From Candidatus Omnitrophota bacterium (GTDB lineage Bacteria; Omnitrophota; Gorgyraeia; Duberdicusellales; 4484-171), in the NCBI GenBank assembly GCA_041652815.1, contig JBAZGN010000001.1, positions 317,855-381,854 of the forward strand: a stretch of 64,000 nucleotides of DNA, written 5' to 3'. This document shows, in pieces, positions 11,960 through 52,567 of this stretch. A model generated the notes under the pieces. It was given only the letters and a program-made list of their open reading frames with translations. It ran no database searches and was not told the origin of the DNA. The translations under genes and the position numbers were made by a program. Each line of letters begins with the position of its first letter. Positions within the stretch are counted from its first letter, which is position 1.

Positions 11960-13714
11960 ATGGATAGAAAAGGAATTATTACAAAAATTGTCGCAAACAT
12001 GGTAAGCGTGCGGGTGGATGGCTCTGTCACCCAGAACGAAGTTGCCTATATTTTGCATGGGCCAGAACGCCTCAAAGCCGAGGTTATCCGCATCCGCGGT
12101 AAAATCGCTGAAACCCAGGTGTATGAATCAACAACAGCCCTTAAGGTTGGAGATGAAGTAGAGCTTACCGGAGAGTTGCTTTCGGTTGAATTAGGCCCTG
12201 GCCTCTTGGGGCAAATTTTCGATGGCCTGCAAAATCCGCTTCCTCAGATAGCAAAAGAATGCGGATTTTTTCTTAAGCGCGGCGTATATAAAAAGGCACT
12301 TGTTGATAGTACAACCTGGGAATTTAATCCTCTGATTAAAAAGGGCGATACTCGCCGGGCGGGAGATAAAATTGGATATGTCAACGAACACATTTTTAAG
12401 CACTACATCATGGTGCCCTTTGGTTTAAAGGGAATACTTAAAATAAATTCCATAGCCGCCAAAGGCACCTATGATCTTACACAGCCTATAGCTACGATTG
12501 AAGAGCCAAACGGAAAAACACACGAAGTATTTTTAAAACAAATCTGGCCGGTAAAAATTCCTATTGAAGCCTACGCTGAAAAAATAAAGCCAATTGAACC
12601 ATTGGTTACTAAAATACGTATCATAGATTCGCTTTTTCCGGTTAGCCTTGGGGGAACTTATTGCGTTCCCGGGCCTTTCGGCGCAGGCAAAACTGTCTTA
12701 CAGCAATTAATCAGCCGGCACGCCGAAGTTGATGTAGTAGTTATTGCTGCCTGCGGCGAACGCGCCGGCGAAGTTGTCGAAACCTTAAAAACTTTTCCGC
12801 AGATAAAAGACCCGCGCACAAATTTACCTTTATCCGAGCGCACAGTTATTATTTGTAATACCAGCTCAATGCCTGTTGCGGCACGTGAATCAAGCGTCTA
12901 TACCGCTGTAACTATTGCCGAATACTACAGGCTTATGGGTTTAAACGTAATGCTTCTGGCTGATTCAACAAGCCGCTGGGCGCAGGCGATGAGAGAAATG
13001 TCCGGCCGGCTAGAAGAGATTCCGGGAGAGGAAGCTTTTCCTGCTTACCTTGAATCTCGGATTGCCTCATTTTATGAGCGAGCAGGTTTAGTTCGTTTAA
13101 ACGACGGCACATTCGGTTCGGTTACAATTGGTGGGACGGTAAGCCCTGCCGGAGGAAATTTCGAAGAACCGGTAACGCAGGCGACATTAAAAGTTGTCGG
13201 AACATTCCATGGCCTGTCACGCGACAGGTCAAACGCAAGAAGGTATCCGGCAATTGACCCGCTAATAAGCTGGAGTAAATATAAAGGTATTATTGAAGAT
13301 AGTTTAATTGCGCGCGGGCATGCAGTGCTTGATAAAAGCCATGAAGTTGAGCAGATGATGAAAGTTATTGGTGAGGAAGGAACCTCTCTGCCGGATTTTG
13401 TAGAATATCTTAAGGGTGAATTTTTCGATTTTGTATATTTGCAGCAGAATGCATTTGACGCGGTGGATGAATCGACAGAAGCGCCCCGCCAAAAATATAT
13501 TTTTGGTTTTATTTATTCAAATATTTTTGAAAAAGATTTTAACTTTATTGATAAAGACGCAGCCAGGCATTTTTTCCATACCCTTCGGCAAGCTTTCAGA
13601 GGATGGAACTCAAGCGAGTTTGAGAGCGAAGAGTTTAGAAGAATAGAAAGAGAAATAGTTAGTGCAATTAGTATAAAAATAACCAAGCTCCAAGATACAA
13701 TAACCAAACAATGA
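11960..13714 (+). CDS. ntpA: V/A-type ATPase catalytic subunit A
   Basis: P-loop GPFGAGKTVL, 584 aa. The last codons and stop codon lie inside repeat E1. Confidence 0.95.
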   Translation: MDRKGIITKIVANMVSVRVDGSVTQNEVAYILHGPERLKAEVIRIRGKIAETQVYESTTALKVGDEVELTGELLSVELGPGLLGQIFDGLQNPLPQIAKECGFFLKRGVYKKALVDSTTWEFNPLIKKGDTRRAGDKIGYVNEHIFKHYIMVPFGLKGILKINSIAAKGTYDLTQPIATIEEPNGKTHEVFLKQIWPVKIPIEAYAEKIKPIEPLVTKIRIIDSLFPVSLGGTYCVPGPFGAGKTVLQQLISRHAEVDVVVIAACGERAGEVVETLKTFPQIKDPRTNLPLSERTVIICNTSSMPVAARESSVYTAVTIAEYYRLMGLNVMLLADSTSRWAQAMREMSGRLEEIPGEEAFPAYLESRIASFYERAGLVRLNDGTFGSVTIGGTVSPAGGNFEEPVTQATLKVVGTFHGLSRDRSNARRYPAIDPLISWSKYKGIIEDSLIARGHAVLDKSHEVEQMMKVIGEEGTSLPDFVEYLKGEFFDFVYLQQNAFDAVDESTEAPRQKYIFGFIYSNIFEKDFNFIDKDAARHFFHTLRQAFRGWNSSEFESEEFRRIEREIVSAISIKITKLQDTITKQ

Positions 13715-29800: not shown

Positions 29801-29922
29801 ATTCCAAAAATTTTCTTGGTAATTGTCCGCCACCAATGATTAATCATATATAGGCGGATCAGCCTTTGGCTGATAATTTTGGATTTGTATATTGTGATTT
29901 AAACTTGAAGGAGAGATGTAAT

Positions 29923-30576
29923 ATGGACACCCATAAAACAAAGTCTATGAAAAACATTGAAGAGCAAATGCAAAACGTAGGAGAGGATTCTTTGCGCTAC
30001 CATGTACTTGAGAGTGCCAAGAATTTTAAAACATCCTGGGTTGCATTGGGCCGTTCGCTTTATACAGTATGGAAGGATAAGCTTTATAAAGATTGGGGTT
30101 TTAATACGCTGGAAGGCTATACTTCCAAGGAAATCGGCATAAAAAAATTAACTGCGATGAAATTGCTGCGGTCTTATTATTTTCTTGAAAAAGAAGAGCC
30201 GCAATACTTAAGTTCCGAATACGCGGAGCAAGCTCCGGCAACTACAGTTCCTACTTATGAATCCGTTGATTTACTTCGAAAAGCAAAAAATAACAAAATT
30301 CTTGATAACCAGGATTACGCAAATCTTAAAAAAGATATATTTGAAAAAGGAAGAGATGCCCAGGTCGTAAAGAAAGATTTAACTAATTTAATCAGGCAGC
30401 GTAAGGAAATCGACCCTGAAGAGAGCCACGAAAAAGAACGCGTAAGCGTTATAAAAAGATACTTAAGCGTGTTAAAATCCATGAAAAAAGAAATAGAAAT
30501 ATCAAAACTCCTCCCCCCGACACTCCTTAAAGAAACTGAGAGCTTGATAAAGAAGCTGGAGGAAGAAGTATCTTAA
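29923..30576 (+). CDS. Hypothetical protein (217 aa)
   Basis: ATG at 29923 (MDTHKTKSMKN). No recognisable domain. Charged, helical C-terminus. Confidence 0.45.
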   Translation: MDTHKTKSMKNIEEQMQNVGEDSLRYHVLESAKNFKTSWVALGRSLYTVWKDKLYKDWGFNTLEGYTSKEIGIKKLTAMKLLRSYYFLEKEEPQYLSSEYAEQAPATTVPTYESVDLLRKAKNNKILDNQDYANLKKDIFEKGRDAQVVKKDLTNLIRQRKEIDPEESHEKERVSVIKRYLSVLKSMKKEIEISKLLPPTLLKETESLIKKLEEEVS

Positions 30577-31771: not shown

Positions 31772-31892
31772 TTCTTCAAAAAACACTTGACTAAAAAACC
31801 TTTAATAGTAAAATTTTACTATTAAAATTTAACTAAAGCACCTCAGCTTTTAAGGAATGCCTAGTGTGCGCTTTCCGTGTAAGGAGGACCAT

Positions 31893-33416
31893 ATGAATGT
31901 AAAAGAATTACTTATAAACCAAGCTTCGTTATTTCCTCAAAAAAGCGCTTTTATCTTTGAAGGCAAAGAAACAACCTTTTTGCAACTCAAAGATGCCGCA
32001 TTTAAGATTGCCAATTATTTTACAAGGCAAGGCATAAAAAAGCCAGATAAAATTGCTATTTTTACCCCAAACACTCCGGAAGCTATTTGTGCGCAGATGG
32101 CGGCATATTCTATAGGTGCAACCTTGATACCTTTTGATTACATGCTCACAGAAAATGAGATTATTCATTTCTTAAACCATAGCGAAGCAAAAGTATTAAT
32201 CATGCAGCCGAGAAAAGACATAAACGTATTAAACATCCGGGAAAACTGTTATTCTGTAAAATATATAATAACCTGTAAAGAGCGCCTTGCGGATTGCGAT
32301 TTCCTTGATGATCTTTTGGCAGAGGAAAGTAGTGAAGCTCCGATTCCGCAATCTTTTGATAAAGACCTCGCGGCAATATTTTATACCTCAGGCTCAACTG
32401 GCCACCCTAAGGGCGTAATGCTTAGCTATAAACAGTTTGATAATCCGGTTGATACAATAAACCATTTTTTAGGGGTTTCGGAAAACGATGTTTATTGTAC
32501 CGGCGGCATACCTTTTTCCCATGTGGGCGGGCTTAATTACCTGCTTTTAATGATTCGTTTTGCATCAACCGTTATTGTAATGGGAAGGTTTCATCCGATG
32601 GAATTTTTAAAAAATATAGAAAGATATAAAGTCACGATATTTTGCATAGTGCCTTCGATGTATGTTGCGATTTTATCTCTAAAAGAATACGAGAGGTTTA
32701 ACCTTTCGTCTTTAAGGTATGCAGTTGTTTTTGGTGCGCCTTCTTCGCCTCTTTTGCTTAAGAAATTTCACAGGTCATGCCCTAAAGCAATTGTTTTAAA
32801 CGGTTGGGGTATGACTGAAACCGCCGCTCCGAATACTTTTTCGCCCCCGGACGAGCATAAGATATCCAGCATAGGGAAATTCGGATTTCGTATGCAGGCA
32901 AAGATAATCGATGAGGAAGGAAAATCTTTGTTATATGGAGAACAAGGCGAATTATTAGTCAGCGGAGAAGGTGTTACCGGCGGCTATTACAGAGAGCCGA
33001 CCTTAAGCTCAGATGCTTTTTGGGGAGAAGGGTGGCTGCGTACCGGCGATATTGCTTATTTTGGAAAAGACGGGCTGATATATCTTGCCGGGAGAAAAAA
33101 GGACATGATAAAAGTTGCCGGTGAGATAGTTTTTTCCTCGGAAGTTGAAGAAAAAATACAGCTCTATCCAAAGGTTAAAGAAGTTGCTGTCATAGGTGTT
33201 GCCGATGAATTAAGAGGAGAAGTGCCGAAAGCTTTTATTGTTGCAAAAGAATCTGAAGTGATAGATGCTCAGGAGCTAAGGGATTTTTTAAAAGAGCATC
33301 TGGCTCATTTTAAAATTCCGCATTATTTTGAATTTATAAAAGAACTTCCAAAAAATAGAGTGGGAAAAATCGACAAACAGGCACTTAAGAAAACACAGAT
33401 TAGCACAGATTTGTAA
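31893..33416 (+). CDS. AMP-dependent synthetase/ligase (acyl-CoA or aryl-CoA ligase)
   Basis: YTSGSTGHPKGV AMP-binding motif, C-terminal KIDKQALKK. SD AAGGAGG before ATG 31893. Confidence 0.85.
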   Translation: MNVKELLINQASLFPQKSAFIFEGKETTFLQLKDAAFKIANYFTRQGIKKPDKIAIFTPNTPEAICAQMAAYSIGATLIPFDYMLTENEIIHFLNHSEAKVLIMQPRKDINVLNIRENCYSVKYIITCKERLADCDFLDDLLAEESSEAPIPQSFDKDLAAIFYTSGSTGHPKGVMLSYKQFDNPVDTINHFLGVSENDVYCTGGIPFSHVGGLNYLLLMIRFASTVIVMGRFHPMEFLKNIERYKVTIFCIVPSMYVAILSLKEYERFNLSSLRYAVVFGAPSSPLLLKKFHRSCPKAIVLNGWGMTETAAPNTFSPPDEHKISSIGKFGFRMQAKIIDEEGKSLLYGEQGELLVSGEGVTGGYYREPTLSSDAFWGEGWLRTGDIAYFGKDGLIYLAGRKKDMIKVAGEIVFSSEVEEKIQLYPKVKEVAVIGVADELRGEVPKAFIVAKESEVIDAQELRDFLKEHLAHFKIPHYFEFIKELPKNRVGKIDKQALKKTQISTDL

Positions 33417-33652: not shown

Positions 33653-34381
33653 ATGATGCAAAGAGATGTGCACTTGCACGCAAAAGGATTACTTGAATCT
33701 TTACAATTCCGCCAGGGTGATTTTGGCGAAATCGGCATTATCAGCGGACAAATGCAGCGAGCCCAAAGATGCCTTCAGTATCTGGAAAATCCTGTAAAAA
33801 ATTTTACTTTTTTGGGTTACACTTTCTGGACAGGTATATATAAAGGAAAGAAAGTCACTGTAGGCAATGGCGGTTTCTATGCACCGGATTCAGCGTTTGT
33901 CACGGAAATTTTATGCGTGGGAGGGATTAAAACACTTATCCGGCTTGGCTCCTGTGGGGCAATGTTGCAGGAAATGACTGTTGGAGATTTTGTCGTGGTT
34001 GATAAAGTTATCAGAGGTGATGGAGCCACGCGCTATTACGTCGATGATAATTTTGTTCCGCAAGTGGACAAAGAATTATCCAAAAAGTTAGTAACAATTT
34101 TTGAAAAACAGGGCAAAGTTTATCAGGGTGCCTGCTGGACTACTGATGCAATGTTTAGAGAAACAAAGGAAATCGTAAATCCTTATATAGAAAAAGGCGC
34201 AATTTGTGTGGATATGGTAACCAGCCCGTTTGTTACTGTCGCTAATGTTTATAAAACAAAGGTTGCCGCTATCTTGGTAGTTTCGGATAATCTTTTAACC
34301 GGCGAAATGGGTTTTGCCGATTTTCGTTTGTTCGATGCAGAAGAAAAAATGACAAAAACGGTGTTTGAGATTATTGCCTAA
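33653..34381 (+). CDS. PNP/UDP family-1 nucleoside phosphorylase (candidate MTA / 5'-deoxyadenosine phosphorylase)
   Basis: IRLGSCGAM, TVGNGGFYAPDSA and an ICVDMVTS-like C-terminal motif, characteristic of DeoD/MTAP-type phosphorylases. Confidence 0.65.
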   Translation: MMQRDVHLHAKGLLESLQFRQGDFGEIGIISGQMQRAQRCLQYLENPVKNFTFLGYTFWTGIYKGKKVTVGNGGFYAPDSAFVTEILCVGGIKTLIRLGSCGAMLQEMTVGDFVVVDKVIRGDGATRYYVDDNFVPQVDKELSKKLVTIFEKQGKVYQGACWTTDAMFRETKEIVNPYIEKGAICVDMVTSPFVTVANVYKTKVAAILVVSDNLLTGEMGFADFRLFDAEEKMTKTVFEIIA

Positions 34382-34389
34382 CAAATTTG

Positions 34390-34470
34390 TATCACGTCGC
34401 ACGTATCACGTATCACGTATCACGTCTTTTTAAAACCTGTTACGTGCTACCTGATACGTGGTACGTTAAA
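34390..34470. repeat. Compound imperfect palindrome, GTATCACG x4 facing CGTGCTACCTGATACGTGGTACG
   Basis: Seen directly. It overlaps the false 5' extension of the next ORF. Confidence 0.75.
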
Positions 34471-34482
34471 AGAGAGGTTTAT

Positions 34483-34746
34483 ATGCCCGATATGCAATGG
34501 AGTGCAAAAGCAAAGGAAATTTTTGATAAGGTGATCAGCAATCTTCCGCAATTTCATCGCTCAATTGCCGAAAGATTAGTTAAAGAGTCAGCTGAAGAAA
34601 TTGCTAAAAACAAAAATATGGCTATGGTCGAGGAAAAAGAACTTATAGAGGCATTTTTTAAAGAAATACCCCCGGCGTTTAAAGATATGTTGAAAAGATT
34701 ATTGACTAAGCTGGGTATTGACTACGAAAAATACGGAGTTTCTTGA
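34483..34746 (+). CDS. Small cytoplasmic protein (87 aa) of unknown function
   Basis: SD AGAGAGG before ATG 34483 (MPDMQWSAKAKEIF). Helical. Confidence 0.45.
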   Translation: MPDMQWSAKAKEIFDKVISNLPQFHRSIAERLVKESAEEIAKNKNMAMVEEKELIEAFFKEIPPAFKDMLKRLLTKLGIDYEKYGVS

Positions 34747-34852: not shown

Positions 34853-36469
34853 ATGAAAATAGCGGTTATAGGCCCAGGGGCAATCGGCGGTTTAGTTGCA
34901 GGGTATCTTAAAGAGCAGGGCGAAGACGTATCCCTTGTTGGCACTAAAGATACAGTTGAAGCAATTAATAAGAAAGGCCTGTCAATTTCCGGTGTGCGTG
35001 GGAATGTTAAGGTAAATATTCAGGCGGCAGTTTCTTTAGATAAAAAAGTAGACCTTATAATTTTAACTACCAAAACACAGGATATAGAAAAGGCCTTAAG
35101 GGAAAATAAGCAATATCTGGCAGGCGCAATTATTTTAACCGCGCAAAATGGTGTAGAGGCTGACGAAATTGTTGCGCAATTTGTTCCCAGGGAAAATATT
35201 ATCTCAAGTATTGTAATGTTTGGCGCAACATACCTTAAGCCGGGCGAGATAGTTCATAATTTTGAGAGAAAATGGGTAATCGGCAAGCCTTTCGGCAAAA
35301 ATGATGATTGGGTTAAGCGTGTGTCTATATTGCTTGGCAGGATTTTTCCTATAGAAATAAGTGATGATATCAAAGGAATGAAATGGCTTAAAGTTTTCGC
35401 AAATGCCAATAACTGCATTGCGGGTATTACCGGCAAAAGCATGCAGGAGTGTTTCGCTAATTTGGATTTATGTGAAATAAGTCTCGGTATTTGGCAGGAA
35501 GGCTTGGGCGTGATTAAAAAAGCCGGCATAAAGCTGGTTAATTTGCCTGATTTTACCGTAGAACAAGTAACAAAACTTACATCTTTACCCATAAAAGAAG
35601 CAGCAAAGATATTTTCCGGCATAATGATAAATTTAAGCAAAGAACCTCTATACGGTTCAATCTTGCAAAGCATTAAAAGAGGCAAGGCTTCAGAAATAGA
35701 TTATTTAAACGGAGCATTTGTTAAATTAGCAAGACAATGCGGATATCACACCCCTTTAAATAAAAAATTAACGGAGCTGGTGCATAAAGTTGAAGAGGAG
35801 CATAAATTTTTTACGATAGATGACCTGATTGAAAAAACAAAAAATTTAATCCCGCAACAAAGCTGCGATGATAGTGGCAAGGTAAACACTCCTTTTCCAA
35901 AACTTAAGCTTACCGTGGTAAAGGTTGAGGGAGATTGTTATCACGGCTATAAACAAGGCGATGAAATAGTTTTGGAAGATTTTACCCATCCGCCAAAGCA
36001 TTTTTGTTTGGGCTTAGCCCATGCTTTGTTTCCCGTAATTTACGCTTTAAGTTTTGGCGCAAAATTTGGTTTTCGCGATAACCAGCGTTCGCTTTTAGTA
36101 ACCTGCCCGGACGGCGGAAAACTTGAATTTAAAGCAGAAATCTTCGATAAGGAAGGAAAAATCGAAGTAATAGAAAAAGACCCAAATCATAAAGGGCCAA
36201 ACCCTAAAGAAATGGTTTTGGAGGTAGTGCAATCAAAAGGCAAGTGCGCTTACGGCTACAAATTAGGCGACAGAATAGAAGTTAAAGGGCTAAAGTGCCC
36301 GGAAGGATTTTGCGGCGCAGCATACCATTGTGCATTTCCCGCGCTTTTCGCACTTAACTTCGGCGCAAAATTCTTCTTTATGGATGACCCGGATGGTATT
36401 AATACCGTAACCTGCCCGGATGGCGGGAATATTGTGTTTAAGGTGAGCCGCAAAAAAGTCAGTCTATAG
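34853..36469 (+). CDS. Ketopantoate-reductase-like (ApbA/PanE) NAD(P)-binding enzyme fused to a tandemly duplicated Cys-rich ~95-aa domain (TIGR04076-like)
   Basis: N-terminus MKIAVIGPGAIGG with an ApbA_C signature (GKASEIDYLNGAFVKLARQCGYHTPLN). The C-terminus has two repeats sharing G.C.[HY]GYK.GD ... FC ... FP.[IL][YF]AL.FGA ... VTCPDGG ... FK. Confidence 0.7.
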   Translation: MKIAVIGPGAIGGLVAGYLKEQGEDVSLVGTKDTVEAINKKGLSISGVRGNVKVNIQAAVSLDKKVDLIILTTKTQDIEKALRENKQYLAGAIILTAQNGVEADEIVAQFVPRENIISSIVMFGATYLKPGEIVHNFERKWVIGKPFGKNDDWVKRVSILLGRIFPIEISDDIKGMKWLKVFANANNCIAGITGKSMQECFANLDLCEISLGIWQEGLGVIKKAGIKLVNLPDFTVEQVTKLTSLPIKEAAKIFSGIMINLSKEPLYGSILQSIKRGKASEIDYLNGAFVKLARQCGYHTPLNKKLTELVHKVEEEHKFFTIDDLIEKTKNLIPQQSCDDSGKVNTPFPKLKLTVVKVEGDCYHGYKQGDEIVLEDFTHPPKHFCLGLAHALFPVIYALSFGAKFGFRDNQRSLLVTCPDGGKLEFKAEIFDKEGKIEVIEKDPNHKGPNPKEMVLEVVQSKGKCAYGYKLGDRIEVKGLKCPEGFCGAAYHCAFPALFALNFGAKFFFMDDPDGINTVTCPDGGNIVFKVSRKKVSL

Positions 36470-36545: not shown

Positions 36546-37793
36546 ATGAGACGAGTAGTCATAACCGGCATTGGCGTAATCTGTGCAGCTGGCGAGGATA
36601 AAAACACTTTTTACGATAATATTGTCGCCGGTAAACCCTTTATTGAAAGAGTAGAGAATTTTGATGTAAGTTTATTTGTGTCAAAAATAGCTTCACAGGA
36701 TTTAGGCTTTGACCCGCTCAAATTTGGCATAAAAGACCACCAGCGTATGGATAGATATGTCCAATTTGGTATTGCCGCGGCAAAACAGGCAGTTGAAGAC
36801 AGCCACATTGATTTTAATAAAATAAACAGAAAAAAATGCGGTGTAATTTTAGCAAACGCAATTTGCGGCACGCGTTTTATGGAGGAGGAATTCCTTCTTG
36901 TAACTGACTGGGGAAAGAGGCCAATCGATCCGCGTAAAGGCCGGCCTTATCTTTATGATGCGGCAATGTTTAATACGCCAAGCGCAGAAATCGGAGCAAT
37001 TTATCATACGCAAGGGCTTAATTGCACGGTTTCTACCGGTTGCACTGCTGCTACAGATTCTTTAGGATTTTCTTTTGAACTTATCCGCGAAGGCAGGCAG
37101 GATATAATTATTGCCGGTGGTACTGAAGCGCCGGTTTGCCCGATTACTTTTGGAGCTTTTGACGTGGTAAATGTTTTGGCAAAAAATAACGATGAACCGC
37201 ATAAAGCCAGCCGGCCTTTCGATAATAAAAGAAACGGTTTTGTAATTTCTGAAGGCGCGGGCGTTGTAGTGCTTGAAGAATTAGAGCACGCAAAAAAGCG
37301 CGGCGCGCATATTTACGGAGAATTGGTTGGTTACGGTACAAGCTGTAATGCCTTTCATATGACGGATTTACCTGAGGACGGCGAAGCGATGGAGCGCTGC
37401 ATCAAAGATGCGATGAAAGACGCAGGAGTTAAAAATGAAGATATAGACTATATAAATACGCATGGCTCATCAACCAGGCAAAATGACGTTTTTGAGACAA
37501 ATGCTTACAAGGCAGTGTTCGGTGATTATGCTTACAAAATTCCGATAAGCTCTATAAAATCAATGATTGGCCATCCTTTGGCGGCAGCCAATGCTGTAGA
37601 GAGTGTTTTATGCGCGATGATTTTTGAAAAAGGATATTTGCCCCCCACGATAAATCAGGAAGAGCCAGACCCAAAATGCGATTTGGATTATATTCCAAAC
37701 GTGAAAAGACAATATATGCCTAATTACATATTAAAAACAAGCAGCGGATTTTCCGGAATACATTCGTCTATTATATTTAAGAAATATAAATAG
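36546..37793 (+). CDS. Beta-ketoacyl synthase, KS-alpha (FabF-like, catalytically complete)
   Basis: Cys in STGCTAATDS, His in INTHGSSTRQND, His in SMIGHPLAAANAVE. The stop codon TAG lies inside the terminus of repeat K2. Confidence 0.85.
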   Translation: MRRVVITGIGVICAAGEDKNTFYDNIVAGKPFIERVENFDVSLFVSKIASQDLGFDPLKFGIKDHQRMDRYVQFGIAAAKQAVEDSHIDFNKINRKKCGVILANAICGTRFMEEEFLLVTDWGKRPIDPRKGRPYLYDAAMFNTPSAEIGAIYHTQGLNCTVSTGCTAATDSLGFSFELIREGRQDIIIAGGTEAPVCPITFGAFDVVNVLAKNNDEPHKASRPFDNKRNGFVISEGAGVVVLEELEHAKKRGAHIYGELVGYGTSCNAFHMTDLPEDGEAMERCIKDAMKDAGVKNEDIDYINTHGSSTRQNDVFETNAYKAVFGDYAYKIPISSIKSMIGHPLAAANAVESVLCAMIFEKGYLPPTINQEEPDPKCDLDYIPNVKRQYMPNYILKTSSGFSGIHSSIIFKKYK

Positions 37794-37897: not shown

Positions 37898-39130
37898 ATG
37901 AAAGAACGTGTAGCAATAACAGGCGTGGGAGTTGTTTCACCAGCCGGTTTAAAAAAAGAAACTTTTTGGGCAAATTTGAAACGAGGCGACTCATTTATAG
38001 ATGAAGTTACGCGCTTTGACGCATCGCTTTACCCGTCTCGCATAGCCGGCCAGGTTCATGAGTTGGATCATTATTCGCATTTGCCAAGCCGCCTGGTAAA
38101 AAAGATTGATGTGTTTTCTCATATGGCGCTTGTTGCAACCGAGCAGGCTTTGCAAGATGCAAAGATAGATTTAAATAACGTTGATAAAAAACGTGTAGGC
38201 GTTTTTATGGGTAATGCTATCGGCGGCTGGCTTTTTGCCGAAACCGAACTACGCGATATGTATATTGAAGGCAGAGAAGGTGTATCTCCCTATATGGCTT
38301 CTGCCTGGTTTCCAGCAGCACCCCAAGGGCAAATTACAATTTTCTATGGATTTAAGGGCTACAGTAAAACTGTGGTAGCTGACAAGGCTTCTTCTGCGCT
38401 TGCTCTGTGGTATGCGGCGAAAAATATAAGCGAAGGCAAAAATGATTACGTTGTCGCCGGAGGAATGGAAGCGCCAATTACGCCATACGCGCTTTTAAGT
38501 TCCAATTCCTGCGGCCAACTGTCCAAAAATAACCTTAACCCCAGGAAAGCTTATAAGCCTTATGATTTATATCGAGACGGTTTTGTTTTAGGCGAGGGCT
38601 CCGGAATAGTAAATTTAGAAAAAGAAGAGCATGCCAAAAAAAGAGGGGCACACATTTATGGATTTTTAAAAGGCGTTGGTTTTTCCTCCGATGGTTATCA
38701 TTATGAACGTTATAGCCCGAATTCAGAAAGTTTTGAATATGCAATAGAAGAGTGTTTAAAAGACGCAGGCTGGGCAAAAAAAGAAGTAGATTATATTTGT
38801 TTGGATGCAGAAGCGACAACTATGGGCGATTATCTTGAAACGCAAGCGTTAAAAAATGTGTTCGGAAAGGAACTAAAAAATATTTCACTTAGTGCGCCAA
38901 AGAGTATGTATGGAAACCTTTTAGGTGCACAAACGGCACTGGATTTGATATCAACATTGTATTCAATGAGTAACAACCTGGTCTTCCCGACAATTAATTA
39001 CGAGATGAACGACCCTTATTGCGATTTGGATTATACGCCAAATGTTGCAAGGGAAAGAAAAATAAATAAAGCCCTGCTTCTTGCTCGCGGAAGAGGTGGG
39101 ATAAATGTGGTATTAGCTATTGAAAAGTAA
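37898..39130 (+). CDS. KS-beta / chain-length-factor-like ketosynthase paralog (all three catalytic residues substituted)
   Basis: It aligns with KS-alpha throughout. The active-site Cys position reads VVADKASSAL, and both His positions are replaced (LDAEATTMGD and MYGNLLGAQTA). Confidence 0.75.
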   Translation: MKERVAITGVGVVSPAGLKKETFWANLKRGDSFIDEVTRFDASLYPSRIAGQVHELDHYSHLPSRLVKKIDVFSHMALVATEQALQDAKIDLNNVDKKRVGVFMGNAIGGWLFAETELRDMYIEGREGVSPYMASAWFPAAPQGQITIFYGFKGYSKTVVADKASSALALWYAAKNISEGKNDYVVAGGMEAPITPYALLSSNSCGQLSKNNLNPRKAYKPYDLYRDGFVLGEGSGIVNLEKEEHAKKRGAHIYGFLKGVGFSSDGYHYERYSPNSESFEYAIEECLKDAGWAKKEVDYICLDAEATTMGDYLETQALKNVFGKELKNISLSAPKSMYGNLLGAQTALDLISTLYSMSNNLVFPTINYEMNDPYCDLDYTPNVARERKINKALLLARGRGGINVVLAIEK

Positions 39131-39260: not shown

Positions 39261-39494
39261 ATGGCATTAAAAGAAGACGTTGTGAATGCGATTGCCGACA
39301 TCTTGGATGTAAAAGCTGATGAATTGAAAGATAGCGAAAAATTATACGATTCAGTTGGAGTAGATTCAACAGAAATGGTTGAACTTTGCGTTTCTTTGGG
39401 GAAAAAGTTCGGCGTAAAAATTGCCACAAATGAAATAACAAAATCTTCAACACCGCTTGAAATAACGGCGTTGATTGAAAAGAAGAAGCAATAA
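39261..39494 (+). CDS. Acyl carrier protein
   Basis: 77 aa. The phosphopantetheine-attachment Ser sits in GVDSTEMVEL. SD AAGGAGG. Confidence 0.8.
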   Translation: MALKEDVVNAIADILDVKADELKDSEKLYDSVGVDSTEMVELCVSLGKKFGVKIATNEITKSSTPLEITALIEKKKQ

Positions 39495-39563: not shown

Positions 39564-40367
39564 ATGCAAATAATCGATTTAAGCCTACCAATTGACGATC
39601 GTGCCTTTGAAGTGCATCACGTTGAAATTGAGCGCGTATCTCATAAGGCAGGAGTTGAAAAATTTAACCGCGTTTTAATGGGGAAAACCTTAAAAGGCAA
39701 GCTCCAATATATATTAGGTAAGCGTATTGTTAAAAAAGAAGACTTGCCGAATGAAGAGTTTTTATCTTTGGAAATCGTGCATTCACCGGTTCATATCGGC
39801 ACACATTTAGATTATTCTTTCCATTACGGTTCAAAGTCAGAAGGCCGCGCCTCTAAAACTGCGGAAGAAATTCCTCTTGAATGGTGCTATCAAAATGGCG
39901 TTAAGCTCGATGTTTCGCATAAAAAATCAAACGAAGCGATAACGGCGGCAGATTTAGAAAACGCTTTAAAGAAAATAAACTATACGTTAAAGCCCTTAGA
40001 TATTGTTTTATTATATACAGGAGCTGATAAATTATACGGAGGCCCAAAATATTTTAGCGATTACCCGGGCGTAGACATTTCGGCGATAGATTATCTTTTG
40101 GATAAAGGTATTAAAATCTTTGGCGTAGACACTATGGGCATAGACCGGCCATATAGATTTATGCTTAAAGAATTTTTGGAAACCAAGGACACGAAAAAAT
40201 TATATCCAGCACATTTCTATGGAAGAAAACGCGAATTTATTCATATAGAACGATTAGCAAATTTAGATAAATTACCTGACTTTGGATTTAAGATTATTTG
40301 TTTCCCCGTAAAAATTAAGTGTACCGGGGCTGCCTGGGCAAGAGCAGTTGGGATAATTAAAAGCTAA
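39564..40367 (+). CDS. Cyclase-family protein (PF04199; kynurenine-formamidase / polyketide-cyclase fold)
   Basis: The HIGTHLDYSFH motif matches the HxGTHxDxPxH metal site, plus GVDTMGIDRP. Confidence 0.7.
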   Translation: MQIIDLSLPIDDRAFEVHHVEIERVSHKAGVEKFNRVLMGKTLKGKLQYILGKRIVKKEDLPNEEFLSLEIVHSPVHIGTHLDYSFHYGSKSEGRASKTAEEIPLEWCYQNGVKLDVSHKKSNEAITAADLENALKKINYTLKPLDIVLLYTGADKLYGGPKYFSDYPGVDISAIDYLLDKGIKIFGVDTMGIDRPYRFMLKEFLETKDTKKLYPAHFYGRKREFIHIERLANLDKLPDFGFKIICFPVKIKCTGAAWARAVGIIKS

Positions 40368-41204: not shown

Positions 41205-41283
41205 TTTTAGTTTCTATAAGTTTTTATTCGTGGTAATTCGTCTTTAATCCGTGGCCATTCGTGTCAAAAGAAAGGAGGTTAAA

Positions 41284-41724
41284 ATGGGACATACAGTTAA
41301 TTCAATTATAATCAATGCGCCTTACGAGAAAATTTTTGATATCTCTAATGACATTGAACGTTGGACAGAATTATTTGGTGATGAATATAAAGAAGCAACC
41401 GTGGAAAAGAAAGAAGGCAACAAAATAACTTTTAAACTTATGGATGATGAAGGTAGAACCTGGAAATCATGGCGGCTTTTATTCAAAGATAAGAATTTTG
41501 CCTATGCCGAGCGCGAAGAGCCGAAATTTCCTTTTAAGTTTATGAAAATCATCTGGCTTTATATACCAAGGCCAAGCGGCATTGAAATGGTTTGGATCCA
41601 GCATTTTGAAATGGATGAAAAAGCTAAATTTAATGACGAGCAGGTAGAAGGTTTCATCAATAAGCATTCTAAAGATAATTTGAAGATATTTAAGGACGTA
41701 ATTGAGAAAGAAGCAGGTAGATAA
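41284..41724 (+). CDS. SRPBCC (Bet v1-like) polyketide cyclase/dehydrase-family protein
   Basis: The HTVNSIIINAPYEKIFDISNDIERWTELF N-terminus matches the Polyketide_cyc2 signature. SD AAAGGAGG before ATG 41284. Confidence 0.65.
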   Translation: MGHTVNSIIINAPYEKIFDISNDIERWTELFGDEYKEATVEKKEGNKITFKLMDDEGRTWKSWRLLFKDKNFAYAEREEPKFPFKFMKIIWLYIPRPSGIEMVWIQHFEMDEKAKFNDEQVEGFINKHSKDNLKIFKDVIEKEAGR

Positions 41725-43151: not shown

Positions 43152-43928
43152 ATGAGTAGCGAGCTTAAAGGTAAAACTGCAATTGTAACCGGCGCAAGCC
43201 GCGGGATAGGCAAGGCTCTTGCTTGTGTGGCAGCAAGTTTAGGCGCGAATGTAGCTATCGCAGCAAGAGGGGAAGGGCCGCTTAAAGAAACCGCTGCGGA
43301 GATAGAGAAAAAATATAAAGTTAAGGTTCTGGCCGTTCCCTGCGATGTTACAAAACTGGAAGATCTAGAAAACTTAGTAAATAAAACAAAAGAAAAATTT
43401 GGACAGATAGATATTTTGATAAATAATGCAGGAGTTTCTAGCCAATATCCTTTTGAAAAACAGCCGATTGAAGATTTTGAGCGTCTCGCCCATACAAACT
43501 ATTTAGGTTATGTGCGCTTGATTCGTTTGGTGATAAACGATATGATAAATAGAAAATCTGGGGCAATAATCAATATGGTTTCCGGCTCAACGCTTTGTGA
43601 CCCCCTTCCGAGAAATTTTATTGTTTATAGCTCATTGAAAGTAGGGCTTCGCGCTTTTTCTAAAGCTCTGTTTTGGGAAATGCGCGACCACGGTATAAAA
43701 GTTACTTCGCTTTTACCGGGAGTCACAGATACCGATTTAACAGGTAAATTGGAAGAAATAACAGCAAACGCCTCGCGCTTGATGACCACAGAGGCTATTG
43801 AAAATGCAGTGAGGTTCGCTTTAACTGTTCCGGCGAATGTCTGTCCGCTTGAGATAGCAGTTATTAATCAGCAAACGCCATGGACAAAGCCGGTGATACC
43901 GTATAAGCAGGATCATCCTAATAAGTAG
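43152..43928 (+). CDS. SDR-family ketoreductase (FabG/ActIII-like 3-oxoacyl-ACP reductase)
   Basis: TGASRGIGKA cofactor motif, NNAG, catalytic YSSLK. Confidence 0.85.
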   Translation: MSSELKGKTAIVTGASRGIGKALACVAASLGANVAIAARGEGPLKETAAEIEKKYKVKVLAVPCDVTKLEDLENLVNKTKEKFGQIDILINNAGVSSQYPFEKQPIEDFERLAHTNYLGYVRLIRLVINDMINRKSGAIINMVSGSTLCDPLPRNFIVYSSLKVGLRAFSKALFWEMRDHGIKVTSLLPGVTDTDLTGKLEEITANASRLMTTEAIENAVRFALTVPANVCPLEIAVINQQTPWTKPVIPYKQDHPNK

Positions 43929-44944: not shown

Positions 44945-46402
44945 ATGAAGATACTGTTCGTCATGCCGAAAATCGGCGCTTGGGCAACCCATGGAAATCA
45001 TTTTGCACCTAACCAGTTATATGCCCAGTGGGGAGCATATATCCGTGAGAAAGGTTATGACAATCTTGAGGTTTTAGACGCAACTGTCTTGGGTATTCCC
45101 ATTGAACACTTGGCTGAGAAAGTTAAAGAAAAAAATCCTGACGTGGTTGTCTTGGGCGATATGATTCATTGCTCGGTAGGCTTTGGCATAATCTGGCATT
45201 TTAACCAGGCTGCCGCAAGAATAAAACAGGTTTTACCAAAAACGAAAATAATTATGGGCGGGCTTTGGTATTCAGCCTTACCCGTTCAGACCTTGGAGGA
45301 TAATCCCGCGATAGATTATGTGGTTATGGGCGAAGAAGAATCCTTTTATGACCTTATCGATGCAATCGATAAAAATAAAAATATGAAAGATGTTGCGGGG
45401 GTAACCAGCCGCATAGATGGTAAGCCGGTAATGGGCCCGCATAAGCCGCTATTGCAGGATTTGGATAAATTGCCGCTTCCGGCTTATGATTTATTTCCTA
45501 TGGATAAATACATAGGGCATACTTTCTGGAAACCGTTTGTTGAAATGATAACGTCCCGTGGCTGCCCCTCAGCTTGTACTTTCTGTTATGAATGGGACCA
45601 GTATGACCCGCGCAGCCCGCAGGATTTTTTAACCTGGCGCGCAAAATCACCGGAGCGCGTTATTGAAGAGCTCGAGCTTTTAAAGAAAATGGGCACAAAA
45701 GTTGTGGTTATACAGGATGATAATTTTAATGTTAATCCCGAGAGAGTTGAAAAATTTTGTAACTTAAAGAAACAAAAAAACAATCCGATTAAATGGGTTT
45801 CTTTAGGAAGAGCTGTTGACTGGATTAATTGCGAAAAAATTTTGCCTCTAATGAAAGAAACCGGATTATTTATGGGGGTATTTGGAATTGAAGTGACCAC
45901 GCCGGAAGAGCTTAAAAAAATCGCCAAAGGAATAACCATTGATCAGATTAAAAAAACAATCGATATTTTACGCGCCCAGAATATCGCAATTGTCGCTGAT
46001 ATTATGATGGGCTTTGATGACGATACGGAATATTCCATAAAGCAGAGATTTGAATTTACCGACGAAGTTGACCCGGATATTCTTTGGGTTGGTTACGTTA
46101 CCCCTGCTCCTAATTCACCTATCTGGAGGCAAAGGGTAAAACGCGGGGAAATAGACCTTAAAAAAATTGATTTTCTTAAGTGGGATTTTTTACACCCGGT
46201 TATGCCGACAAAGCATTTAACCTTGGAAGATTACGGAAGGCTTGGCGCCTGGTGTATGCGCGAATTTTTCTCAAAACCGGGGCGCATTCAGAGAATTATG
46301 ACCAGTAATTTCGACCCGCTGGCAAAACTCTGCTTCGAGGATGTTATGCGCGGAGTTTCAAAGTGGGAAGCAGGAGCGGTTAAGGGGGAAAAGCATATTT
46401 AA
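44945..46402 (+). CDS. Class B (cobalamin-binding) radical SAM enzyme
   Basis: N-terminal B12-binding-like domain. CPSACTFC is a CxxxCxxC motif. Confidence 0.8.
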   Translation: MKILFVMPKIGAWATHGNHFAPNQLYAQWGAYIREKGYDNLEVLDATVLGIPIEHLAEKVKEKNPDVVVLGDMIHCSVGFGIIWHFNQAAARIKQVLPKTKIIMGGLWYSALPVQTLEDNPAIDYVVMGEEESFYDLIDAIDKNKNMKDVAGVTSRIDGKPVMGPHKPLLQDLDKLPLPAYDLFPMDKYIGHTFWKPFVEMITSRGCPSACTFCYEWDQYDPRSPQDFLTWRAKSPERVIEELELLKKMGTKVVVIQDDNFNVNPERVEKFCNLKKQKNNPIKWVSLGRAVDWINCEKILPLMKETGLFMGVFGIEVTTPEELKKIAKGITIDQIKKTIDILRAQNIAIVADIMMGFDDDTEYSIKQRFEFTDEVDPDILWVGYVTPAPNSPIWRQRVKRGEIDLKKIDFLKWDFLHPVMPTKHLTLEDYGRLGAWCMREFFSKPGRIQRIMTSNFDPLAKLCFEDVMRGVSKWEAGAVKGEKHI

Positions 46403-48186: not shown

Positions 48187-49650
48187 ATGCGTGCAGACAT
48201 AACTTTGATTAATCTTAATATGCTTTTTATTCATTACGCCAATGGATTTGAAAAGGAACGTCATGTTCCGCTTGGCCCTTTATATCTTACTAGAGCGTTG
48301 GAGGATGCAGGCTTTGAAGTTGATTTTCGCGATTATCAAACTTGGTCCTGTAAAGACCCTTTTGATTTGAATGAATTTCTCGATTTCATGAAGGACCCTT
48401 CTCCTATTGTAGGATTTTCCTGCATGGCCAATTTATTGCCATTTACTATTCTGGCTACAAGGGCATTTAAACAGCGACATCCAAATTGTAAAATTATCTT
48501 AGGTGGCGTAGGGTCAAAATGCGTTGAAGAAAAAATACTAAAACGGTTTCCCTGGATAGAGTTAATCTGCCGCGGTGAAGGCGAAATAACCGGCCCTCAG
48601 CTTTTAAAAGCTCTAAAAACCGGGCAGAACCTGCGTGATATTAGGGGCATATCCTACCGGGAGGGTGAAGAAATTATCCATAATCTAGACCAGGAAAGGA
48701 TAACCAATCTTGACGTAATTCCTTTCCCGCAATTTAACAAAGTCAACCTTAAGGATTATGTCGGCTATGGTATGATGACCAGCCGCGGCTGCCCTTATCC
48801 TTGCACTTTTTGTTCTGTAGCGCCGATATGGAATTTGAATTATTATTCAAGAAGCCCCAAAAATATTGTTTCCGAAATGAAGCGCCTGCACCAAGAAGCA
48901 GGGATTGAAATATGCCTTTTTCAGGACGAATTTTTTGTTTCCGGCAAAAGACAAGTTATGGAATTCTGTAAAGAGTTTTCTGATTCAGGGCTTAAAATAC
49001 GATGGAAAGCTTTCGGCAGAATTAATCTTTGCGACACAGAAATGATGCAGGCTATGGCTGATACTGGCTGTGTTGAGCTTCGTTTTGGTATTGAATCGGG
49101 CTCTGACAATGTGCTTAAGCGCATAAAAAAAGGATTTACTACAAGCGAGGTTATGGAGATAATCCCCAAGGCTATTGAGATGTTTCCAAGAGTAGATACT
49201 TTCTATGTCTGGGGTTTTCCCTTCGAAAGCATGGAAGATTTTAATCAAACTCTTTTTCAGATGATTTCGTTTCGTTCAATGGGCGCCCGCATTCTCCCGA
49301 GCCTTCTTTCTCTATTGCCACAAACCGAAATTTATAAAGAGTGGGCGCCTCAGGCAAAGTTGGAACTTTGCCCTGATTTACTTCCGGAATTCGTGCTTAC
49401 TGGCCATGAGATTTGTAGCGGCATAGATATCTCTATACCCGAAAATTACAAAGATTATTTTAAACTTATTAAGGACAATCCGGATATATTCTCCGGTTTT
49501 TTTCTTATTGACACAAAAAACAATGTTTTACCTAAGCTTGAGCTTTTACGGCAATTCGGTTTCTATCCTTATTCCGAGAAACATAATAAAGATGAGCAGG
49601 CAGAAAGTTGCGGTGCGCATTCTCCTCATATAGCGCCTTCAAAAAAATGA
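48187..49650 (+). CDS. Second class B (cobalamin-binding) radical SAM enzyme
   Basis: The CPYPCTFC motif, with an N-terminal B12-binding-like domain. Confidence 0.8.
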   Translation: MRADITLINLNMLFIHYANGFEKERHVPLGPLYLTRALEDAGFEVDFRDYQTWSCKDPFDLNEFLDFMKDPSPIVGFSCMANLLPFTILATRAFKQRHPNCKIILGGVGSKCVEEKILKRFPWIELICRGEGEITGPQLLKALKTGQNLRDIRGISYREGEEIIHNLDQERITNLDVIPFPQFNKVNLKDYVGYGMMTSRGCPYPCTFCSVAPIWNLNYYSRSPKNIVSEMKRLHQEAGIEICLFQDEFFVSGKRQVMEFCKEFSDSGLKIRWKAFGRINLCDTEMMQAMADTGCVELRFGIESGSDNVLKRIKKGFTTSEVMEIIPKAIEMFPRVDTFYVWGFPFESMEDFNQTLFQMISFRSMGARILPSLLSLLPQTEIYKEWAPQAKLELCPDLLPEFVLTGHEICSGIDISIPENYKDYFKLIKDNPDIFSGFFLIDTKNNVLPKLELLRQFGFYPYSEKHNKDEQAESCGAHSPHIAPSKK

Positions 49651-50627: not shown

Positions 50628-51569
50628 ATGAAACTGTCACCATTATTCTGGCCGATTGAATTAAAAGGGAAAACTATTTATATCCTTGATGAAACCCTTC
50701 TGCCGCATAAAGTCAAATATATAAAGGCAAAAGATTATAAGCAGGCAGTCCGAGCGATAAAGGATATGAAAACCCGGGCAGTCGGACAGGTAATTCTTGT
50801 CTTTTATATTTTTCTTCTGGTTATAAGAAAGAATAAAAATAAGAAAGATATAAAACCAATTTTGTTTAAACTTGCCGAAATCATAAATGCTGCGCGGCCA
50901 ACCTTATCATTTAAATATCTAACCGATATGGTTTTGGGTTGGATGGTCTCTGGCGCGCCGCTTGAAGAAAGCATACTTGGATTTTTGGAAACACTTAAGA
51001 ATAAACGCATTCAGCAGGCGCGCGCGATGAGCGAATTACTGGCCGACGGCGATAGTATCTTGACGCATTGCAATATCAGCGGGCAGATGCCGGCAATTGG
51101 AGAATTCGCTCGCCAGCAAAAGAAGCATATAAGTTTTTTTGCGACGGAAACAAGGCCTTATCTGCAGGGCTCACGCTTAACCGCCTGGGAATTGCAAAAG
51201 CAAGGTTTTGACGTGACATTAATTTCGGATAATATGGTTGCGCAAATAATGCATGAGAAAAAAATAAATAAAGTAATTGTAGGAGCCGACCATTTAGCCC
51301 AAAACGGTGACATTGCCAATAAAGTTGGGACTTACCAGATTGCTATTTTGGCAAAACATTTTGGCATTCCTTTTTATGTTTTATGCCCGCCAGCTTCTCG
51401 CGCAAAAACCGGCAAGGATATTACAATTGAAATCAGGCCGCAAGTCGAATTACTCGAATATCAAGGGATTAAGCTTGCGCCGAAAGGTGTAAAAGGTTAT
51501 TATCCGGCGTTTGATGTAACACCGAATAATTTGATTACGGAACATATCTATTTGGATATTGAAAGATGA
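50628..51569 (+). CDS. eIF-2B alpha/beta/delta-family sugar-phosphate isomerase (MtnA-like 5-methylthioribose-1-P / 5-deoxyribose-1-P isomerase)
   Basis: IVGADHLAQNGDIANKVGTYQIAILAKHFGIPFYVLCP and N-terminal LDETLLP. Confidence 0.7.
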   Translation: MKLSPLFWPIELKGKTIYILDETLLPHKVKYIKAKDYKQAVRAIKDMKTRAVGQVILVFYIFLLVIRKNKNKKDIKPILFKLAEIINAARPTLSFKYLTDMVLGWMVSGAPLEESILGFLETLKNKRIQQARAMSELLADGDSILTHCNISGQMPAIGEFARQQKKHISFFATETRPYLQGSRLTAWELQKQGFDVTLISDNMVAQIMHEKKINKVIVGADHLAQNGDIANKVGTYQIAILAKHFGIPFYVLCPPASRAKTGKDITIEIRPQVELLEYQGIKLAPKGVKGYYPAFDVTPNNLITEHIYLDIER

Positions 51570-52567
51570 TATTCACAAAAGAAAAGACGCTCAAAGCCGA
51601 GATAATCAATATAGGTAAGAAACTATATGAATTACGCCTTGTAGTCGCACGTTCAGGGAATTTAAGCACCAGAATAGAGGGGAATAATATTTTAGTTACA
51701 GCCAGCGGCGCAAGCCTTGGCAGCTTAACCTATGAAGATATAATAAAAGTGGACCTCGACAATGACAAGGAGATTAAAAACCCTTGCTTAACCAGCGAAT
51801 TCCCTTTACACCGCCTGGTCTATAAAAATTTCTCAAATAAAATAATTATTCATTGCCATCCGACGCTGGTTAACGCTTACTTCGCGATTTATTCCGACCT
51901 TAAGGCGTTAACTTTTGAAACCAAACTTTATCTGGGTAATATCCCTGTGGTCGAGCAGGAGACCCCTGCAATTACTAAACCGGAATTAGTAATTAATGCC
52001 TTAAAAATTAACAATCTCGTTGTAGTAAAGAACCACGGTGTAGTAGCTATTGCAGATAAGTTTAGCGACGCTTTATATTTAATCGAATCCTTAGAGGAAG
52101 CAGTAAAGTTAGCCGCGACCGCGCGTTTATTTAAAAAAGAAATTCTTGATGGTTTGGATAAAGAATTGAAGGAAGATTTAACCCATGACAAGGCATATTT
52201 AATGTTTTCAGAAGAGCATATTCGCGCAATCGTGGAATTGGTGAACAAAGATGAATTTATCACAACCAAAGGCAAGGAATTAGATTTAACTCTACAGTAT
52301 GCCATAAAGCTTAACGGCACAGACAAGGTTTATAAATTTAATTTCGAAAAAGGAAAAATTACTAAATTAGAATTTGATGGTAATGCCCCTTTTGTAGCTT
52401 CGGCTTCCACGGATATCTGGCAATCGATTTTTTTAGGAAAGCTTGACCCCTTTGTAGCGGTCACCCAAGGCAAAATGAAGCTCGAGGGGCAGTTAGGCCA
52501 GCTTGCCCGCTGGTATGTTCCGTTTAGCAGGCTGTTTCAGATATTTAAGCAAGTAAAAATTAAATAA
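51566..52567 (+). CDS. Class II aldolase/adducin-domain protein (MtnB / Ald2-like) fused to a C-terminal SCP2 sterol-carrier-like domain
   Basis: ARSGNLSTRIEG ... IIIHCHPTLVNAY (aldolase II). The C-terminus GKMKLEGQLGQLARW is SCP2-like. ATGA overlap with the upstream gene. Confidence 0.65.
   Translation: MIFTKEKTLKAEIINIGKKLYELRLVVARSGNLSTRIEGNNILVTASGASLGSLTYEDIIKVDLDNDKEIKNPCLTSEFPLHRLVYKNFSNKIIIHCHPTLVNAYFAIYSDLKALTFETKLYLGNIPVVEQETPAITKPELVINALKINNLVVVKNHGVVAIADKFSDALYLIESLEEAVKLAATARLFKKEILDGLDKELKEDLTHDKAYLMFSEEHIRAIVELVNKDEFITTKGKELDLTLQYAIKLNGTDKVYKFNFEKGKITKLEFDGNAPFVASASTDIWQSIFLGKLDPFVAVTQGKMKLEGQLGQLARWYVPFSRLFQIFKQVKIK

Follow-up and report, generated by a model that had tools for sequence, protein, structure and literature searches.

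We analyzed a stretch of 64,000 nucleotides (nt) from a Candidatus Omnitrophota bacterium (assembly GCA_041652815.1, contig JBAZGN010000001.1, positions 317,855 to 381,854 of the forward strand), referred to here as the window, and in particular a single gene in which a ketopantoate reductase (KPR) family domain is fused to two tandem copies of a cysteine-rich TIGR04076 repeat. As an earlier note made from the sequence alone had stated, the gene lies immediately upstream of ketosynthase (KS) genes; the first of these begins at 36546. Its open reading frame (ORF) on the forward strand is uninterrupted and ends at 36469, with start options at 34823 (GTG) and 34853 (ATG); we take the ATG as the start because MKIAVIG begins all homologs, which gives a product of 538 amino acids (aa). 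The exact protein is already deposited (MCK9614053.1 and MFA5304343.1, from a Candidatus Omnitrophota metagenome-assembled genome [MAG]) as '2-dehydropantoate 2-reductase,' a name that hides its second half and probably mis-states its substrate. The fusion, which was not known to the earlier note, was thus already public as a sequence, but the literature that we searched contains no description of the fusion architecture, of TIGR04076 function, or of the Omnitrophota gene cluster in which the fusion lies; it holds two passing mentions of TIGR04076 and generic 'ladderane-like biosynthetic gene cluster (BGC)' labels for Omnitrophota.

The two halves of the fused protein

The ApbA/PanE fold that had been proposed for the N-terminal half is borne out by Pfam, NCBIfam, and solved structures, all of which agree. 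Pfam ApbA (PF02558) matches residues 3 to 145 (E = 5e-35, 120.9 bits; cutoff, 22.2) and ApbA_C (PF08546) matches residues 172 to 314 (E = 8e-18, 65.5 bits; cutoff, 22.7), and the NCBIfam model TIGR00745 (apbA_panE) scores 183.2 bits against a cutoff of 141.35. The nearest solved relatives by sequence are those of Thermococcus kodakarensis KPR (5hws/5ayv; E = 6e-26), with other PanE/ApbA structures also matched, and a Foldseek comparison of the AlphaFold model with 5hws gave an E value of 4e-25 and a target template modeling (TM) score of 0.84 to 0.87 over ∼320 residues. The GxGxxG motif at residues 7 to 12 (G7, G9, G12) is invariant among fusion homologs, as are N99, K180, N184, S269, and E281 in 28 fusion proteins; we take these five to align with N98, K176, N180, S244, and E256 of Escherichia coli PanE. 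In the E. coli enzyme, K176 and E256 are catalytic, and N98, N180, and S244 bind the substrate. Judged from these residues and from the model, the KPR half looks catalytically able to reduce a 2-oxo acid or a similar carbonyl with NAD(P)H.

Family membership does not fix the substrate, however, because KPR-family D-mandelate dehydrogenases superpose equally well on the model (TM score, ∼0.85). The cutoffs of the PanE equivalog models are not reached (NF005092, 137 versus 500 bits; NF005091, 134 versus 252; NF006083, 134 versus 371), no pantothenate genes were found among the window ORFs scanned, and the KPR gene occupies the same slot of a KS cluster in all 78 loci that carry both parts of the fusion (see below). 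Activity on a carbonyl other than, or besides, ketopantoate seems the better guess.

The C-terminal half is a tandem duplication, again as first suggested: the two repeats share 45% identity over 85 aa (E = 1e-20) and contain the shared motifs originally listed. Their resemblance to TIGR04076, suggested at that stage, was confirmed with the NCBIfam hidden Markov model, which matches two stretches and scores 100.2 bits with the whole protein and 104.7 bits with the C-terminal part (cutoff, 33). Pfam has no match in this half and no model for the family, and no solved structure was detectable for TIGR04076. The AlphaFold model of the full-length protein has a predicted local distance difference test (pLDDT) score of 88.6, falling below 50 at linker residues 338 to 342; when the tandem module is modeled alone, pLDDT is 91.9 and the predicted TM (pTM) score is 0.85, the two repeats being predicted with high confidence as a single unit. 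The model places the first Cys after β1, the second at a helix N-cap, and the third at the β3-β4 turn.

Comparison of both window repeats with 45 stand-alone family members shows that the three Cys (in G-x-C, G-x-C, and C-P-D contexts) and the Gly of K-x-G-D are invariant. The four or five conserved Cys/His per copy initially reported are therefore correct in part, in that only three Cys per repeat are invariant family-wide, whereas the extra His/Cys residues are conserved within Omnitrophota. Specifically, C362, H364, H379, C385, H390, C418, and D420 in repeat 1, and C465, C487, H492, C521, and D523 in repeat 2, are invariant in 82/82 Omnitrophota sequences, and C482 is present in 80/82. From these patterns, we rate the chances that the repeats bind a metal or Fe-S center as about even.

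Fused and split genes in a conserved ketosynthase cluster

Full-length fused homologs form ∼35 clusters with 59 to 88% identity, drawn from NCBI, JGI, ENA, and Logan assemblies, and all those with a named source are Omnitrophota/Omnitrophica MAGs; below them in the match list are many KPR-only proteins of ∼334 aa with ∼60% identity. One genome per species was scanned, and 285 genomes proved to encode a relative of the tandem module; the best 80 of these 285 are all Omnitrophota MAGs. Both parts are present in 78 loci, 9 of which are fused and 69 split. The split genes are 10 to 25 nt apart, mostly with a change of frame, and a typical pair encodes a KPR of ∼334 aa and a tandem TIGR04076 protein of ∼197 aa, with a ribosome-binding site in the spacer. 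Locus L001 is an example, with the KPR gene followed in the same cluster by a separate gene for a 197-aa tandem TIGR04076 protein (106 bits) that is 79% identical to the C-terminal half of the window protein, the KPR parts being ∼60% identical. The L001 junction reads ...KFVN-stop, 12 bases with GGAG, and then ATG-VKSPFPKLKL, whereas the equivalent region of the window reads through in frame (LIPQQSCDDSGKVNTPFPKLKL). In the window's clade, what was a stop-spacer-start junction is now a linker of ∼15 residues; the fusion is the minority, derived state, and most of the phylum has two adjacent genes.

The prevalence of two genes among relatives is the one observation that would favor a sequencing frameshift or misassembly as the source of the fusion. 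However, the same architecture with a conserved in-frame linker recurs across independent assemblies: four data sources yield ∼35 protein clusters that have it, and 9 species-representative MAGs, each independent, encode it. The frameshift artifact of two separate genes that the earlier note had held open is thus ruled out, its probability being negligible, and the gene is almost certainly a real, derived fusion of two neighboring pathway genes. In a simple neighbor-joining tree, a single clade of 10 tips takes in all of the fused loci. The tree does not show the fusion to be strictly monophyletic, as the split loci L062 and L078 nest inside the fused clade. This could reflect one fusion followed by a fission, two fusions, or an error in the tree. 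We note that the profile scans for loci used narrow alignments, the very diverse ones having no conserved stretch, and the sampled loci are consequently biased to Omnitrophota and one stand-alone lineage.

The genes around the fusion (Table 1) form a cluster whose order, followed by tblastn, is near-invariant in ∼80 loci: the small 87-aa protein, KPR, the tandem TIGR04076 module, KSα, KSβ, (a B12-binding radical S-adenosylmethionine [SAM] enzyme, or B12-rSAM), acyl carrier protein (ACP), the PF04199 cyclase, the SRPBCC protein, (a major facilitator superfamily protein), and a short-chain dehydrogenase/reductase (SDR). An Amidohydro_2 protein and a PNP_UDP_1 enzyme are farther along in the conserved order, and the window's clade additionally has the AMP-forming ligase and a PNP-like gene upstream. 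Median identities to the window proteins in split loci are 84% for SDR, 80.9% for the tandem module, 78% for the cyclase, 75% for the radical SAM (rSAM) enzyme, 73% for SRPBCC, 63.9% for KSα, 56% for KSβ, 55.8% for KPR, 49% for ACP, and 43% for the small protein. By this measure, the tandem module is among the most constrained of the presumptive pathway proteins, second to SDR, and KPR is among the least.

Table 1. Positions of the fused gene, its parts, and the cluster genes in the window, and of the ∼350-aa rSAM genes at other loci
Feature	Source	Coordinates	Strand	Remarks
Whole fused gene (KPR domain, linker, two TIGR04076 repeats)	Window	34853..36469	+	538 aa plus stop
ApbA/PanE ketopantoate-reductase-family domain	Window	34853..35800	+	Residues 1-316; Pfam, NCBIfam, structure comparison, residue mapping
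Linker	Window	35849..35890	+	Residues ∼333-346; takes the place of the split form's stop codon, spacer, and start codon
TIGR04076 repeat 1	Window	35891..36151	+	Residues ∼347-433; family-invariant C362, C385, C418
TIGR04076 repeat 2	Window	36203..36457	+	Residues ∼451-535; family-invariant C465, C487, C521
AMP-forming acyl ligase	Window	31857..33416	+	Cluster member in the window's clade and at few other loci only
PNP_UDP_1 nucleoside phosphorylase/nucleosidase-like protein	Window	33653..34381	+	Pfam
Small 87-aa protein	Window	34483..34746	+	Found before every KPR gene and, in KPR-less L003, before the tandem module
KSα, FabF-like ketosynthase	Window	36546..37793	+	Cys-His-His triad kept
KSβ, chain-length-factor-like	Window	37898..39130	+	Cys-His-His triad replaced by Lys, Asp, and Asn
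Acyl carrier protein	Window	39261..39494	+	77 aa, GVDSTEM motif
'Putative cyclase'	Window	39564..40367	+	PF04199
SRPBCC polyketide cyclase/dehydrase-like protein	Window	41251..41724	+	
SDR ketoreductase	Window	43152..43928	+	Most conserved cluster protein
B12-binding radical SAM enzyme 1	Window	44945..46402	+	BchE/HpnJ-like, sub-threshold; directly after KSβ in most split loci
B12-binding radical SAM enzyme 2	Window	48187..49650	+	
∼350-aa PTO1314-like rSAM	L086	4954-5994		
∼350-aa PTO1314-like rSAM	L088	1561-2619		
∼350-aa PTO1314-like rSAM	L090	279-1364		
∼350-aa PTO1314-like rSAM	L172	2107-3153		

Judged by gene content, the cluster has the anatomy of a type II polyketide synthase (PKS)/fatty acid synthase-like system. 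KSβ is read as a chain-length factor (CLF)-like partner because all three triad residues are lost; the active-site Cys position is a Lys (VVADKASSA), where Gln is typical of actinomycete CLFs. An aromatic polyketide product is suggested only by the cyclase-family Pfam matches (PF04199, SRPBCC), and a ladderane-type identity for the two B12-rSAMs is not supported by the TIGR04072 'lipid biosynthesis B12-binding/radical SAM' equivalog model (75.9 and 99.1 bits; cutoff, 360). The small protein preceding KPR weakly matches DUF2621 (33.8 bits; cutoff, 27.7) and, more faintly still, the PCP_red domain of protochlorophyllide reductase; it is listed as a 119-aa ORF with a TTG start (34387-34746), and homologs point to the 87-aa form with an ATG start at 34483. 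Promoter and terminator scans yielded nothing exceeding chance, which is consistent with an operon. Those ORFs that were scanned within the window's first 30 kb and in the cluster flanks encode housekeeping functions (PyrK/PyrD, V/A-ATPase, ThrRS, TrkH, PheS/T, and Dus).

Several further features of these loci are worth recording. The PNP_UDP_1 gene (33653-34381), an IF-2B-family MtnA-like isomerase gene (50628-51569), and a gene for a class II aldolase with an SCP2 tail (51566-52567) flank the cluster, and together resemble the 'dihydroxyacetone phosphate (DHAP) shunt' that salvages 5'-deoxyadenosine, a radical SAM by-product. At the thresholds used, Pfam matches none of three sizeable window ORFs, at 1849-3348, 16046-17809, and 29866-30576 (499, 587, and 236 aa). 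Third-party-annotation assemblies titled 'uncultured Planctomycetales/Planctomycetia bacterium' (L020, L024, L027, L033, L035, L038, L040, L049, L052, L058, L060, L062, L069, L072, L073, and L078) hold the Omnitrophota-type cluster at ∼80% identity, and their titles are probably wrong. At three loci the matches to KPR, KSα, or rSAM are split over several frames (L026, 8990-9972 and 10606-11766; L025, 13443-14943; L056, 10608-11802); the breaks probably reflect frameshifts introduced by sequencing or assembly, not true pseudogenes, including in L026, where the contig is 1.19 Mb.

TIGR04076 proteins and their neighbors elsewhere

TIGR04076 is a small family, with 275 clusters at 50% identity found by phmmer (E ≤ 1e-3) among 1.84 billion representatives. 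Most are stand-alone proteins of ∼90 aa, with some tandems of 170 to 230 aa and some three-stretch proteins of 350 to 400 aa; the KPR fusion is a single cluster among the 275. The longer members scanned have no Pfam domain, with the exception of P0145, in which a tandem TIGR04076 module is joined to DUF362 and a 2x[4Fe-4S] ferredoxin domain. One tandem relative, a database singleton with 48% identity, is encoded on a contig of high guanine-cytosine (GC) content (L003), in a series running from a phosphopantetheinyl transferase ... to an 86-aa homolog of the small protein, the tandem module, KS, CLF, and ACP. L003 is without KPR, and because the module nonetheless stays beside KS/CLF there, it appears to be tied more tightly to KS/CLF than to KPR.

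Multi-repeat TIGR04076 genes in unrelated low-GC contigs recurrently have a ∼350-aa rSAM gene nearby (Table 1), in what looks like an undescribed gene pair. The L086, L088, and L090 copies have PTO1314 as their best NCBIfam match, below threshold, and those of L086 and L090 are 41% identical; after PTO1314, the best scores of the rSAMs beside multi-repeat members are to SPASM-type peptide maturases (StsB, ScmE, MftC, and WgkB). The rSAM gene is directly upstream of the module in L090 and in L086, which has four B12-rSAM genes and an SDR gene nearby. In L088 the order is rSAM, DUF362-Fer4, and module, with a B12-rSAM gene on the opposite strand; in L172 it is DUF362-Fer4, rSAM, module, three genes including PNP_UDP_1, B12-rSAM, rSAM, and B12-rSAM; and in L087 the module-DUF362-Fer4 fusion (P0145) is followed by a B12-rSAM. 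L086 also encodes two adjacent ∼910-aa proteins (7283-10015 and 10061-12808) downstream of its three-repeat TIGR04076 gene, among several B12-rSAM genes; the one of the two that was scanned has no Pfam match. The contexts at L084/85, L091, L174, and L175 are uninformative.

A stand-alone subfamily has different company. In 16 metagenome loci, a gene for a 685-aa membrane protein of HdrD/DsrK type, which combines two CCG domains with a ferredoxin dicluster, is directly upstream on the same strand (L161, 3439-5496), and in 13 loci an AMP-forming ligase gene is convergent downstream. In Bilophila, a TIGR04076 family member is two genes from the radical SAM activase IslB (PMC8667426). DUF362 shares a Pfam clan with the LarA N-terminal domain of 2-hydroxy-acid racemases (PMC11770544), a kinship that parallels a KPR partner making 2-hydroxy acids and is suggestive, but no more. 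A Methanobrevibacter smithii paper's remark that TIGR04076 is 'fimbriae-associated' is unsupported by any context seen here.

Candidate roles and comparison with known systems

We propose, at even chances, that the fused protein links a carbonyl reductase to a module that acts as a metal or redox adaptor with Cys ligands, with its function inferred from sequence, models, and gene context. The KPR half would act as an NAD(P)H-dependent carbonyl reductase of the ketopantoate reductase/D-mandelate dehydrogenase type, forming a hydroxy compound by reduction of either a precursor of the 2-oxo-acid type or a pathway intermediate at its keto group. The Cys/His sets of the repeats would bind a metal or Fe-S center or form a redox-active thiol site, and the module would serve as the redox or adaptor subunit joining the reductase to the KS/CLF-ACP machinery, to the cluster's B12-rSAMs, or to both. 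Phylum-wide adjacency of the two genes, with later fusion, suggests that the halves act together. A role for the module in radical SAM or electron-transfer chemistry is a tentative addition to this proposal, which we hold to be possible but somewhat doubtful.

Several observations weigh against this interpretation. Only three Cys are family-invariant, and at the fourth position (H379/C482) other members usually have Thr. The KPR is without flavin, and direct coupling of NAD(P)H hydride to a one-electron Fe-S center would then be unusual chemistry; the halves may just carry out consecutive steps. Because of the flavin-less fold, we rank successive steps in one complex above an NAD(P)H-driven electron relay. 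The association with radical SAM genes rests on about ten sampled contexts, with several contigs too short to inform, and the tandem relative L002 is not in such a cluster. Finally, the 80 stand-alone loci (16 with the HdrD-like neighbor) count as one observation, because they are essentially one lineage.

A different explanation is that the tandem module is a structural, non-redox adaptor, stabilized for example by zinc, that docks the reductase or, in KPR-less lineages, another partner onto the KS/CLF heterodimer or ACP, the Cys residues holding the fold only. The module stays beside KS/CLF even without KPR (L003), its extreme conservation is of the kind that interface proteins tend to show, its two repeats are modeled as one unit, and three Cys plus His is a common structural zinc ligand set. 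However, in KS-less lineages the family's neighbors are radical SAM, DUF362-ferredoxin, and HdrD-like Fe-S proteins, a setting that suggests redox chemistry rather than PKS docking, and Fe-S ligands are at least as likely to show the invariant Cys-Pro and Gly-x-Cys contexts; a purely structural role is therefore unlikely, though worth keeping in mind. TIGR04076 could also be a DsrC-like thiol redox carrier, or a scaffold whose Cys are modified by neighboring radical SAM enzymes, with KPR using or regenerating the protein-bound species. A carrier would suit the stand-alone subfamily directly downstream of an HdrD/DsrK-type CCG oxidoreductase, a class that reduces protein disulfides or heterodisulfides, and a modified scaffold would suit the next-best resemblance of the rSAMs beside multi-repeat members to SPASM-type peptide maturases. 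A well-folded domain (pLDDT, ∼92) that is ∼80% conserved across the phylum and fused to enzymes is nevertheless unlike typical peptide precursors, and the Omnitrophota cluster has B12-rSAMs rather than SPASM-type maturases, leaving this explanation decidedly unlikely.

Another possibility is that the N-terminal half is a housekeeping PanE, supplying pantoate for coenzyme A (CoA) and the phosphopantetheine arm of ACP, and that the Cys-rich tail is a regulatory or redox-sensing appendage. TIGR00745 scores above its cutoff, no catalytic residue is missing, the nearest solved structure belongs to a genuine KPR that CoA regulates (5ayv/5hws), and a PanD gene is ∼7 kb upstream in L001. These points are offset by the equivalog scores, which are far under their cutoffs (e.g., 137 versus 500), by the equally good fold match of D-mandelate dehydrogenases, by the constant slot inside the KS cluster, and by the lack of pan genes among the window ORFs scanned; moreover, most species encode the tail in a gene of its own, and it can be present where KPR is not. 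We regard a housekeeping PanE as improbable.

Returning to the reading of the protein as a reductase tethered to a metal or redox module, a bolder version is that TIGR04076 is an unrecognized class of small Cys-ligated redox domain, with a fold unlike solved structures, that would be a dedicated relay for radical SAM enzymes, including B12-dependent ones, driven by a KPR-type dehydrogenase in Omnitrophota and by DUF362-ferredoxin or HdrD-like proteins in other anaerobes. We consider this a long shot; if true, the fused protein would by itself suffice to activate the radical SAM steps of a polyketide or lipid pathway found across the phylum.

Both halves are catalogued families, and fusion of neighboring genes is a common evolutionary event, so the fusion alone is modest. 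Its value is as a Rosetta-stone pointer that connects an uncharacterized domain to a defined enzyme and pathway. The presence of the pathway in at least 285 species genomes (the best 80 all Omnitrophota), together with the high conservation of the module, suggests that the cluster product is probably a core lipid, quinone, or cofactor of this uncultured phylum and not an accessory metabolite. The recurrent neighbors (PTO1314-like rSAM, B12-rSAM, DUF362-ferredoxin, and HdrD-like proteins) also lead to a testable idea on how some radical SAM systems of anaerobes are serviced.

The window protein shares features with several known systems and departs from each. Both repeats have the ∼90-aa unit, three invariant Cys, and K-x-G-D of the TIGR04076 family (JGI, 'uncharacterized repeat protein, TIGR04076 family'), but unlike the typical stand-alone ∼90-aa members, two copies are fused here to a 330-aa reductase and carry extra invariant His/Cys. 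The reductase has the Rossmann and helical ApbA_C domains and the catalytic Asn, Lys, Asn, Ser, and Glu of PanE/ApbA and D-mandelate (2-oxo-acid) dehydrogenases (5hws, 5ayv, 3wfj, 5x20, and 1ks9); unlike the solved or characterized PanE/ApbA members, it has a C-terminal Cys-rich extension, lies in a KS/CLF rather than a pantothenate context, and does not satisfy the equivalog models. Cluster and gene order are those of the split Omnitrophota pairs such as L001, which differ in having two genes, with a stop codon and a 12-nt spacer containing GGAG, where the window has one ORF. P0145, L088, and L172 likewise couple a tandem or triple TIGR04076 module to an oxidoreductase-type partner beside B12-rSAM genes, although the partner there is DUF362 plus 2x[4Fe-4S] ferredoxin instead of KPR, and there is no KS/CLF nearby.

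At the level of the cluster, we are aware of no published type II PKS that includes TIGR04076 or KPR, and our literature searches gave the same picture. The window cluster resembles a minimal type II PKS in its KS with a triad, triad-less partner, discrete ACP, SDR, and SRPBCC and PF04199 cyclase-family proteins. It differs in that the CLF has Lys and not the usual Gln and that B12-rSAMs are integral to it, and, unlike sporadic type II PKS clusters, it is conserved phylum-wide among housekeeping genes.

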